Origin: a virus
Taxonomy: Duplodnaviria; Heunggongvirae; Uroviricota; Caudoviricetes
DNA: 17,644 bases
Strand: one strand, 5' to 3'
Virus record (IMG/VR): IMGVR_UViG_2737471835_000010
Span: 1 to 17,644 of that record
The notes beneath the pieces were generated by a model. That model made no database searches. It was not told the origin of the DNA and saw only the letters and a list, made by a program, of their open reading frames with translations. The first letter of the stretch is position 1, and each line of letters opens with the position of its first letter. A program made the translations under genes and the position numbers. Positions 15,086-17,644 of the stretch are shown piece after piece.

Positions 15086-15111
15086 GGCCACGTCAGGTGG
15101 CCTTTTTATTT
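15086..15111 (+). terminator. Intrinsic terminator-like hairpin (GGCCAC-GTCAG-GTGGCC followed by TTTTTATTT) after the methyltransferase
   Basis: Read directly from the sequence, 7 nt after the methyltransferase stop and upstream of the holin. Confidence 0.55.
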
Positions 15112-15146
15112 CCATTACACAGCACCCGCATCTGCGAGGTGGGGTT

Positions 15147-15362
15147 ATGAAATCCATGGATAAGTTAACAACGGGTGTCGCCTATGGCACCTCAGCAGGT
15201 AGTGCCGGGTACTGGTTTTTACAGTTGCTCGATAAAGTCACGCCCTCACAGTGGGCGGCAATAGGTGTGCTGGGTAGTCTGGTATTTGGCTTGCTGACGT
15301 ATCTGACAAACCTTTATTTCAAGATTAAAGAAGACAAGCGTAAGGCTGCACGGGGAGAGTAA
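15147..15362 (+). CDS. S: Pinholin, phage 21 S21 family (dual-start MKSMDK motif)
   Basis: [71 protein letters not shown] is near-identical in pattern to phage 21 S21 as I recall it. GAGGTGGGG lies upstream of the ATG. The ORF-track start at 15084 was rejected. Confidence 0.9.
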
Positions 15363-15366
15363 TTCA

Positions 15367-15717
15367 ATGACTCAAAACTATGAACTGATTGTGAAAGGGA
15401 TCCGCAATTTTGAGAATAAAGTTACGGTAACTTTAGCGTTACGGGACAAAAAACGTTTTGACGGTGAAATTTTTGACCTGGACATCTCGCTGGACCGTGT
15501 TGAAGGTGCCGCGCTGGAGGTTTATGAGGCAGCAGCCAGAAGGAGCATCAGACAGGTCTTCCTGGATGTTGCTGCCGGGTTATGTGAAGGGGATGAGCAG
15601 TCGCCGGAAAAGCGCCCCGTAATTTTAGATGCGCAGAATGTTTGGATAACCTACAAAGGAAAGCTACCAGGAAGAATTACTGGTTCTCTGAAGACTCCTC
15701 CGGAATCACAACCTTAA
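15367..15717 (+). CDS. Hypothetical soluble protein (116 aa) inserted between holin and endolysin
   Basis: Clean ORF 4 nt after the holin stop. No transmembrane segment and no recognised motif. Confidence 0.5.
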   Translation: MTQNYELIVKGIRNFENKVTVTLALRDKKRFDGEIFDLDISLDRVEGAALEVYEAAARRSIRQVFLDVAAGLCEGDEQSPEKRPVILDAQNVWITYKGKLPGRITGSLKTPPESQP

Positions 15718-15780
15718 GTCACTGACCGGAACAGATAAACCTGTCCGTGGGCAGAAACCGATAAATCCTGATAAATATCC

Positions 15781-16314
15781 ATGAACGCAAAAATCAGATA
15801 CGGCCTGTCGGCTGCCGTTCTGGCACTGATTGCCGTCGGTGCGCCCGCGCCTGATATTCTCGACCAGTTTCTGGATGAAAAAGAAGGTAACCACACAACG
15901 GCATACCGCGATGGGTCCGGCATCTGGACCATCTGTCGGGGTGCCACGATGGTGGATGGAAAACCCGTTTTTCCCGGTATGAAACTGTCGAAGGAAAAAT
16001 GCGACCAGGTCAACGCCATTGAGCGTGATAAGGCGCTGGCATGGGTGGAGCGCAATATTAAAGTACCACTGACCGAGCCACAAAAAGCGGGTATCGCGTC
16101 ATTTTGTCCCTATAACATTGGCCCCGGTAAGTGTTTTCCGTCGACGTTTTATAAGCGGCTGAATGCTGGTGATCGTAAAGGTGCATGCGAGGCGATTCGC
16201 TGGTGGATAAAAGATGGTGGGCGCGATTGCCGCATACGTTCAAATAACTGCTATGGACAGGTTATTCGTCGTGACCAGGAAAGCGCATTAGCCTGTTGGG
16301 GGATAGATCAGTGA
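15781..16314 (+). CDS. R: SAR endolysin (T4-lysozyme-like glycoside hydrolase, R21-like)
   Basis: N-terminal weakly hydrophobic Ala/Gly-rich signal-anchor-release segment ([18 protein letters not shown]), followed by a catalytic E...D...T region ([20 protein letters not shown]). Located right after the pinholin, as in phage 21. Confidence 0.9.
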
Positions 16315-16778
16315 GCAGAGTCGCCGCGATTATTTATGCTCTGGTTATCTGCATCATCGTCTGCCTGTCGTGGGCGGTCAATCATTACCGTGATAACGCC
16401 ATCGCCTACAAAGAACAGCGTGATAAAAAAGTCAGTGAGCTGAAGCAGGCGACCGCCACCATTACTGACATGCAGCAACGCCAGCGTGCTGCTGATGTAC
16501 TCGATGCTAAATACACGAAGGAGTTGGCTGATGCGAAAGCTGAAAATGATGCTCTTCGGCGCAAGCTTGATAATGGTGGTCGGGTGCTCGTCAAAGGAAA
16601 ATGCTCTGTGCCATCCTCAGCCGAAACCTCCAGCGCCTCCGGCATGGGCAATGATGCCACCGTCGAACTCTCTCCAATTGCTGGACGAAACGTTCTCGGT
16701 ATCCGGGACGGAATCATCAGAGACCAGACAGCACTGAGAACGCTTCAGGAATACATCAGGACGCAATGCCTTCGATGA
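16311..16778 (+). CDS. Rz: Rz i-spanin
   Basis: GTG overlaps the endolysin stop (GTGA), with GGGGGA 7 nt upstream. The ORF track offers a TTG at 16296. N-terminal TM segment ([17 protein letters not shown]) then a charged coiled-coil-like region. It contains the embedded Rz1 ORF. Confidence 0.8.
16531..16737 (+). CDS. Rz1: Rz1 o-spanin (lipoprotein) embedded out of frame within Rz
   Basis: AAGGAG 8 nt upstream of the ATG. Lipoprotein signal with lipobox LIMVVGC, followed by a proline-rich segment ([16 protein letters not shown]). Entirely inside Rz in another frame. Confidence 0.75.
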
Positions 16779-16952
16779 TAGCGATAATTTTACTCATCAT
16801 CCTTCACATCTGGCTCTGTAGACAGGGTGGTGATCACTTCTGGAGTAAATCCAGATTAAACATCTCATTGCTGATGCTTGATATTGAGCATCTGGCGCGC
16901 AGTAAGGGGCTGCGTTGAGATAAGAGCCAGTTCATTACAAATACCAGGATTT

Positions 16953-16978
16953 AGCCTCGCATTCGCGGGGCTTTTTAT
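16953..16978 (+). terminator. Intrinsic terminator-like hairpin (AGCCTCGC-ATTC-GCGGGGCT followed by TTTTAT)
   Basis: 8-bp stem with one G-U pair plus a T-run, in the non-coding gap between Rz and rha. Confidence 0.5.
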
Positions 16979-17120
16979 ATCTGAATTTCACAGCGCATCT
17001 CACGCGCATATTAACGAGAGCCTTTCAGTAAGCGAGCCTGAGAAATGCCGTTATAGGTGGCGACCTCTCTCGGGCGGCTTTTCTGTGAGACAGGCTCACT
17101 TTCTAAAAGGTAAAGACGCT

Positions 17121-17644
17121 ATGAATAATCATTCAGTTATTCCAGCCTTCGACTTCCGAGAAATGGTGCAAGCCAAAAACGGAGAGGTCGTTACCACATC
17201 CAGAAAAATTGCCAAGTACTTCGGCAAGCGACACGGTGATGTTCTCAGGAAAATCGAGCAGGTTAAGGCTGATTGCTCGCGTGAGTTTAGCCAACGCAAT
17301 TTTCGTCGGCTGATTATATCGATGAGCAGGGCAAGGTTCGCCCGATGTACAGCCTGACGAAAGATGGCTGGATCATGGTTGTGATGGGGTTCACCGGGAA
17401 AGCTGCTGCGGCAATCAAGGAGAGCTATATCGCAGCATTCAACTGGATGGCAGAGCAACTGAGCCGCCGCATGGCAATTGGCGAAGAAATGCAGCACCGC
17501 TACGCCATCAAAGAAACACGCTCAAAGCTGAAAGGTACGATCGGCAGTCGGTTAATGAACGAACGGAAGAAAGAGAAGCGTGTCCTGGCTGTCGAGCATG
17601 AATACATCTTGCAGGTGACACAGCCTGAACTGCTGATTAATTGA
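17121..17644 (+). pseudogene. rha: Rha-family phage regulatory protein, interrupted by a frameshift near 17300-17312
   Basis: The N-terminal part (MNNHSVIPAFDFREMVQAKNGEVVTTSRKIAKYFGKRHGDVLRKIEQV...FSQRNF) is in one frame and stops at 17355-17357. The expected continuation (ADYIDEQGKVRPMYSLTKDGWIMVVMGFTGKAAAAIKESYIAAFNWM...) is in another frame that ends at 17644. A single-base indel in or near the TTTTCGTCGGCT segment explains the break. Confidence 0.6.

Follow-up and report, generated by a model that had tools for sequence, protein, structure and literature searches.

A ydfR-family (DUF1327) gene between the pinholin and SAR-type lysozyme genes of an Escherichia coli lambdoid prophage, a candidate late-operon accessory gene

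Gene order and transcription of the lysis region

The stretch of DNA analysed here, which we call the window, is 17,644 nucleotides long and corresponds to the integrase-to-lysis part of an E. coli lambdoid prophage; 87% of it is covered at ~98.7% identity by five complete genomes. A Q antiterminator gene lies upstream of the lysis region (12667–13419), which contains the following features.

15147–15362, + strand: P21-type pinholin gene, 71 aa (PF04971, E 2e-35; PHROG holin; essD in RefSeq)
15352–15359, + strand: ydfR Shine-Dalgarno sequence GGGGAGAG, inside the last holin codons, read from the sequence
15367–15717, + strand: ydfR-family gene, ATG start, 116 aa plus stop
15367–15582, + strand: codons 1–72, conserved DUF1327 core (AlphaFold2 model and family alignments)
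15583–15717, + strand: codons 73–116, C-terminal module GLCEGDEQSPEKRPVILDAQNVWITYKGKLPGRITGSLKTPPESQP, modelled with low confidence and exchangeable between variants
15718–15780, + strand: 63-nt spacer between ydfR and the lysozyme gene, with no partner gene, unlike many other loci
15781–16314, + strand: SAR-type lysozyme gene, 177 aa (PF00959, E 1.4e-24)
16296–16778, + strand: Rz spanin gene (PF03245, E 1.1e-28), marking the end of the lysis cassette
about 16531–16737, + strand: embedded Rz1 lipoprotein frame with lipobox VVGC, within the ORF 16486–16737

The holin stop codon (TAA, 15360–15362) is followed after a 4-nt gap by the ydfR ATG at 15367, and ydfR ends 63 nt before the lysozyme gene, as expected from the earlier note on this DNA, which had placed a gene between pinholin and SAR endolysin. 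Read from the sequence, the pinholin begins with MKSM, a dual start at Met1/Met4, and the lysozyme has both the Ala/Gly-rich N-terminal segment typical of SAR endolysins and an E-x8-D-x5-T spacing. In S of phage 21, the dual-start motif encodes the holin's own antiholin form. The cassettes of phage 21 (S21-R21-Rz/Rz1) and DLP12 (essD-rrrD-rzpD) contain the same holin and lysozyme families and the same spanins as the window, but in them the holin and endolysin genes are adjacent, without the additional ydfR gene that separates the two in the window. The view that the gene is an insertion relative to a minimal cassette is likewise borne out by K-12 DLP12 and by a phage locus, L010, in both of which holin and lysozyme genes directly adjoin.

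That note had also regarded the gene as unknown and its product as lacking any recognisable motif. This description was wrong, because the 116-aa protein matched PF07041 (DUF1327) in Pfam over residues 1–112 with an E-value of 1.8e-41 and a score of 140.7 bits, compared to a gathering cut-off of 25 bits for this family. In PHROG, the protein matched phrog_2091 and phrog_406, both in the category of unknown function. RefSeq labels a 100% identical copy 'YdfR family protein' (WP_000193288.1), and the entire holin, ORF, and lysozyme stretch is 100% identical in complete E. coli genomes. It is essentially certain that the product of 15367–15717 is a member of the YdfR/DUF1327 family.

Scanning the + strand of the window from 15103 to 16953 revealed no promoter-like or terminator-like site, and terminator-like hairpins bracket the lysis region at 15086–15102 and 16953–16972. 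Because nothing resembling a promoter or terminator lies between these hairpins, holin, ydfR, lysozyme, and Rz would form a single transcription unit. Co-transcription of ydfR with the lysis genes, as had been proposed, is thus almost certain from the anatomy of the region, namely the 4-nt gap, the lack of internal promoter-like and terminator-like sites, and the Q gene upstream. The 63-nt spacer between ydfR and the lysozyme gene had a folding z-score of −0.19 and no match in Rfam, and a regulatory RNA in this spacer was rejected on these two grounds. The GC content of ydfR is 0.467 and that of the window 0.471. In the N-terminal domain, most pairs of variants gave a dN/dS of 0.25–0.5, with values up to 0.87 in the least diverged pairs. 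By dN/dS and by the length and predicted fold that its homologues keep, ydfR is a real coding gene that is selected as a protein.

Two neighbouring regions of the window are also of note. A gene for an N6/N4 DNA methyltransferase (350 aa, PF01555; 14027–15079, + strand) immediately precedes the holin gene, with the terminator-like hairpin at 15086–15102 between the two; the order methylase then holin is also found in mEp460 and, with a different holin type, in two Klebsiella loci (L126–127). On the 3' side of the lysis cassette, a Rha-family regulatory gene (PF09669; 17118–17644, + strand) is split into two overlapping ORFs, one at 17118–17357 that matches profile positions 1–41 and the other at 17345–17644 that matches positions 55–90, which suggests a frameshift, a pseudogene, or a sequencing error.

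Core domain and C-terminal modules of YdfR

YdfR of the window is a 13.0-kDa protein with a pI of 5.5. Its highest Kyte-Doolittle mean over 19 residues is 0.69 and it has no membrane segment, in agreement with the earlier assignment as a soluble protein. In an AlphaFold2 model calculated with a diverse alignment, residues 1–76 were modelled confidently (pLDDT 88.7, pTM 0.76), with antiparallel strands at 5–14, 18–27, and 33–43 packed on one long helix (50–73). The core contains an (F/Y)-Y-E motif at positions 52–54, which reads V-Y-E in the window, and Y53 and E54 are present in 31 of 32 family members. Counted on the alignment, residues 1–72 of the window protein are ~81% identical to residues 1–72 of K-12 YdfR, and length and predicted fold are kept in homologues at about 25–30% identity from several enterobacterial genera. 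Stand-alone homologues of 72–76 aa score above the Pfam cut-off and gave an hhalign probability of 99% to the family of the window protein.

We also compared the core with double-stranded RNA-binding domains (dsRBDs). At the positions corresponding to a KKxAK-type dsRBD motif, residue 59 is basic in 27 and residue 62 in 17 of 32 members, and the domain is acidic overall; for the window protein, neither structural nor profile comparison gave a significant match to the alpha-beta-beta-beta-alpha fold of dsRBDs. Tandem DUF1327-like domains were observed in two distant proteins (P0188, 176 aa; P0191, 170 aa), which hints that the single-domain proteins may work as dimers.

C-terminal to the core, residues 73–116 had pLDDT values below 50, and the model suggests that this variable tail is probably poorly ordered. 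Family members span 72 to 287 aa owing to different C-termini, and the long C-terminal extensions had no Pfam match above threshold. Compared to the ydfR gene of Stx2 phage 86, the window gene has a dS of 0.29 in the C-terminal module and 1.33 in the N-terminal domain. This more than four-fold difference indicates that the gene is an intragenic mosaic with a recombination junction near codon 70–75. One protein (P0153) consists of later modules, including the C-terminal module, without the core domain. The K-12 protein ends in EKLSEKVESYLQHQYSFKIENPANKHERPHHKYL, which is unrelated after about residue 70 to the EKRPVIL...KTPPESQP module of the window. The modules that appear shuffled among ydfR genes are the core, the EKRP...KTPP module, a coiled-coil extension, and, in Stx2 phage 86, a further tail of 100 aa; such arrangements can be seen at 15583–15717 of the window, in proteins P0153, P0021, P0025, and P0131, and at L002:2501–3307.

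Distribution, insertion sites, and convergent partners

Of 5,426 complete E. coli genomes, 4,349 (about 80%) contain DNA resembling ydfR, at 8,617 places in total, and 5,166 contain the P21-type holin, at 16,913 places. By these two counts, a detectable ydfR accompanies roughly one in two copies of the P21-type holin. At least 534 loci in IMG/VR encode a close relative, and we determined neighbours in the best 80 of them. The holin gene was located 4 nt upstream of ydfR in all 80 and the lysozyme gene downstream in 78, the remaining two being cut by a contig end; the gap between ydfR and lysozyme was 63 nt in 65 loci and 319–452 nt in 13. The same holin-ydfR-lysozyme order with a 4-nt gap is present in K-12 Qin and in mEp460, Evi, PhiR12_2_star, and Stx2 phage 86, so the position seen in the window is overwhelmingly conserved elsewhere. 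Phage records with ydfR include mEp460, Evi, and Stx1a, Stx2c, and Stx2 converting phages. K-12 YdfR (b1555, P76160) belongs to the same family and occupies the same position in Qin (essQ-ydfR-rrrQ-rzpQ), but K-12 ydfR overlaps the start of rrrQ, whereas a 63-nt spacer intervenes in the window. Truncated and frameshifted ydfR variants are frequent in databases. Among GTDB species representatives, ydfR of the window type was found only in Escherichia and Shigella, plus two contigs of metagenome-assembled genomes (MAGs); these contigs (L109 and L111), assigned to Veillonella parvula and Bacillota MAGs, are probably mis-binned E. coli prophage contigs.

A profile search of 1.84 billion representative proteins returned only 87 proteins, the stand-alone ones of 72–76 aa among them; the genera represented by distant members or by their hosts are, among others, Citrobacter, Cronobacter, Salmonella, and Klebsiella. 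None of the distant DUF1327 members examined was found at the holin-endolysin position. Their genes occur instead at the following places, and members scoring above the Pfam cut-off account for six kinds of site, with the two settings after spanin genes counted as one.

Between the tape-measure gene and the next tail gene: L011, L012, and L113–116
Between tail genes M and L: L008, L014, and Salmonella L123–125
Between L and K: L119–121
Between I and J: L007, L009, and L013
After Rz/Rz1: L010, a phage whose P21-type holin gene directly abuts the lysozyme gene
After the spanin gene of a Klebsiella cassette with a lambda-S-type holin: L126–127
Upstream of HNH/terS genes: L015–16 and L117–118

These placements indicate that the core domain is a mobile accessory element of late operons rather than a component of the lysis cassette. 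In one of these phages, an additional 80-aa ORF between the tape-measure gene and M (L008:3323–3565, + strand) has an end that resembles the DUF1327 helix (...SLAEIERRAIEDANQQLKDLVAGF). This ORF had no Pfam DUF1327 match; it is possibly a second DUF1327 copy of that phage, either highly diverged or degenerate.

In almost all of the distant loci examined, a small ORF on the opposite strand lies immediately 3' of the DUF1327 gene, and Stx2 phage 86, PhiR12_2_star, and Evi also have an opposite-strand small ORF directly 3' of ydfR. In twelve loci across different insertion sites, this partner belongs to phrog_10490, which encodes a helical protein of about 94 aa with the motif AA[TS]NF...LDE.SG..FS..LK...K[HS]AINEL. 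The partner genes are as follows.

Convergent DUF1327-phrog_10490 pairs: L007, L009–L012, L014–L024, L113–L118, and L123–L127
Example of such a pair: partner at L011:4227–4514 (− strand), DUF1327 gene at L011:3962–4222
Other partners, all on the − strand: L002:3317–3631, L003:2958–3218, L004:2744–3040, L008:4247–4486, L013:3782–4006, and L119:3773–4321

When IMG/VR was searched from the partner side, a convergent DUF1327 gene was located 5–14 nt away in eight of eight loci, and Salmonella and Klebsiella loci likewise had the partner with a convergent DUF1327 gene; in Serratia, the partner was found without DUF1327. No partner gene follows ydfR on its 3' side in the window, in mEp460, or in K-12 Qin. 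The pair is present at many late-operon junctions in Salmonella, Klebsiella, Citrobacter, Cronobacter, and Enterobacter-type prophages and, to judge by this distribution, behaves as if it moved as a unit. Partners outside phrog_10490 belong to at least six unrelated families (PHROGs 1853, 2572, 25324, and 6806, and two without a PHROG), a diversity that makes the 3' side of DUF1327 look like a slot for variable reverse-oriented cargo. Pfam gave no match above threshold for the partner genes. PADLOC-DB gave no match for the window protein, three distant members, or eight partner or cargo proteins, and a known anti-phage defence system was therefore rejected for DUF1327 and its partners.

Possible roles of YdfR

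Experimental information on the family comes from the K-12 homologue. The leading 72 codons of K-12 ydfR came out of a two-hybrid screen, and full-length K-12 YdfR gave a two-hybrid signal with Rne(1–597) for which residues 1–72 were sufficient (Göpel et al., RNA Biol 2026, PMC13232886). In the same study, Rne(1–598) co-eluted with Strep-YdfR from lysate, the material not having been nuclease-treated, and the YdfR eluate was rich in DNase-resistant nucleic acid (PMC13232886). Overexpression of K-12 YdfR was not toxic, had no effect on growth, and changed few transcripts, and K-12 ydfR yielded almost no reads and was essentially silent under standard growth (PMC13232886). A ydfR mutant also appears in an envelope-integrity screen, only in the supplementary hit tables and unvalidated (screen cited in PMC13232886); this hit could be a polar effect, because the lysozyme gene rrrQ is immediately downstream. 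In an overexpression screen for streptomycin survival, ydfR was associated with a 3-fold higher MIC. Literature on DUF1327 contained only an incidental mention, and we found nothing useful on essQ/rrrQ. The reported association of K-12 YdfR with RNase E and RNA is the only experimental lead on function.

Our best explanation, which we hold tentatively, is that ydfR is an accessory gene of the late operon, carried within the P21-type lysis cassette of a great many Escherichia and Shigella lambdoid prophages, and acts outside the lysis machinery: its small acidic core would bind a target in the host cytoplasm, for which RNase E and/or RNA are the best candidates. According to this explanation, the Q-dependent late promoter would drive ydfR along with the genes for holin, endolysin, and spanins, and translation of ydfR would probably be coupled to that of the holin, as the anatomy of the junction suggests. 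The product would be a small acidic cytoplasmic protein with a conserved N-terminal domain of ~72 aa and a variable tail, and its most likely action would be to bind a target in the host cytoplasm rather than the membrane or cell wall. Homology with the K-12 protein points to the catalytic N-terminal half of RNase E, to RNA, or to both as the candidate target, through which YdfR may modulate RNA decay late in infection. Lysis by pinholin and SAR endolysin would not require YdfR, because P21-type cassettes without ydfR exist, in DLP12, in L010, and at about half of the holin copies. In any effect on RNA decay, YdfR is only a candidate modulator of RNase E, unlike Dip/gp37 of phiKZ, gp0.7 of T7, and Srd of T4. 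It has no sequence similarity to these RNase E modulators and its structural match to them is at noise level; moreover, the part of RNase E bound by Dip is the C-terminal scaffold, and the part reported with YdfR is the N-terminal half.

The main rival is an accessory module that acts on a target other than RNase E, in superinfection exclusion, in anti-phage defence or counter-defence, or as one half of a two-gene cassette whose other gene the window has lost. Such a role, which we consider unlikely, would agree with the presence or absence of the gene between otherwise equivalent cassettes, with its hypervariable C-termini and intragenic mosaicism, and with a small acidic protein, as is typical of phage-encoded inhibitors of host proteins. 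The small opposite-strand gene 3' of DUF1327 in most other loci also favours it, as do the convergent DUF1327 genes in eight of eight IMG/VR loci searched from the partner side and in Salmonella and Klebsiella, and the occurrence of the pair at many insertion sites, like a mobile unit. However, PADLOC matched neither DUF1327 nor any partner tested, the window, mEp460, and K-12 Qin lack a partner gene, and Serratia has the partner without DUF1327. In addition, ydfR lacks a separate promoter that could drive it in the lysogen, and the K-12 gene gives almost no reads under standard growth.

The earlier note had proposed a lysis regulator or antiholin-like factor, and the invariant placement of ydfR after the holin gene in Escherichia gives this reading some weight. 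A cytoplasmic YdfR could modulate lysis timing by acting on the pinholin, for example via its charged cytoplasmic C-terminus, or on the SAR endolysin; the cytoplasmic RIII protein of T4 supports inhibition of the T4 holin. The start of ydfR 4 nt after the P21-type holin stop in 80 of the best 80 IMG/VR loci, probable synthesis of YdfR at the same time as the lysis proteins, the overlap of ydfR with the rrrQ start in K-12 Qin, and the ydfR mutant among the unvalidated supplementary hits for envelope integrity all point in this direction. Members in other genera, however, adjoin neither holin nor endolysin, and the gene follows the spanins in L010 and in Klebsiella, where the holin is of a different type. 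These distant positions, together with the common occurrence of P21-type cassettes without ydfR, argue against a dedicated lysis role. The holin of the window also has the dual-start motif from which phage 21 S obtains its antiholin, YdfR lacks a membrane segment (highest hydropathy 0.69) and similarity to any lysis-category PHROG or Pfam family, and overexpression in K-12 had no growth effect. Judged against S21-71, T4 RI and RIII, and P1 LydB, YdfR shows neither a membrane or periplasmic segment nor similarity to these regulators, and its linkage to the holin gene is not family-wide. The non-lysis positions, the dual start of the holin, and the missing membrane segment thus weaken the proposal, and we regard regulation of lysis timing as improbable. 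We consider it still more improbable that ydfR is a functionless passenger, an ORF kept only through linkage to the holin gene and to a recombination junction. Dispensability of the gene (DLP12, L010), frequent truncated or frameshifted variants, fairly high dN/dS (0.25–0.5, and up to 0.87 in close pairs), and little phenotype on overexpression would all fit a passenger, but dN/dS is below 1, tandem-duplicated versions exist (P0188, P0191), and length, predicted fold, and the Y-E motif are conserved down to about 25% identity over several enterobacterial genera. It is this conservation that makes a passenger unlikely.

A further suggestion had been that the gene is a moron unrelated to lysis. 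A role unrelated to lysis does fit better than a regulator, but ydfR shows none of the marks of a classical moron, namely a promoter, a terminator, and a deviant base composition. Like the lambdoid morons bor and lom of lambda, ydfR is an optional gene between conserved late genes, being present (Qin, window) or absent (DLP12, L010) between otherwise equivalent gene pairs, and DUF1327-related cassettes are found at many junctions, often with a gene in reverse orientation, as lambda bor is. Unlike these morons, ydfR lies on the late-operon strand without a flanking promoter or terminator and has an ordinary base composition. We therefore rejected a classical moron in the strict sense, for which ydfR has neither its own promoter or terminator nor a composition shift (GC 0.467 vs 0.471).

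A more speculative proposal, which we consider quite improbable, is that DUF1327 proteins are phage-encoded adaptors or decoys of RNase E that ancestrally belonged to a two-gene convergent cassette, the partner having been lost from the Escherichia copies between holin (S) and endolysin (R) genes. In that cassette, the DUF1327 gene would share the strand of the late genes and would face a small helical gene on the other strand, either phrog_10490 or other cargo. Once late transcription starts, DUF1327 would redirect or block RNase E, so that the long late transcript would be protected or the antisense cargo transcript disposed of. The Escherichia copies between S and R, including that of the window, would be derived, having lost the partner and gained C-terminal modules.

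Databases already record the gene and the family it belongs to, as well as its position and ubiquity, and a paper on the K-12 homologue exists. Among the prophage genes of E. coli, ydfR is one of the commonest. Compared to that record, our analysis makes a modest addition: a mobile core domain, a convergent partner, and intragenic mosaicism. With a core that is not tied to lysis genes outside Escherichia, a usual companion gene on the opposite strand, and a reported association with RNase E, the range of experiments worth doing on this family is narrowed.
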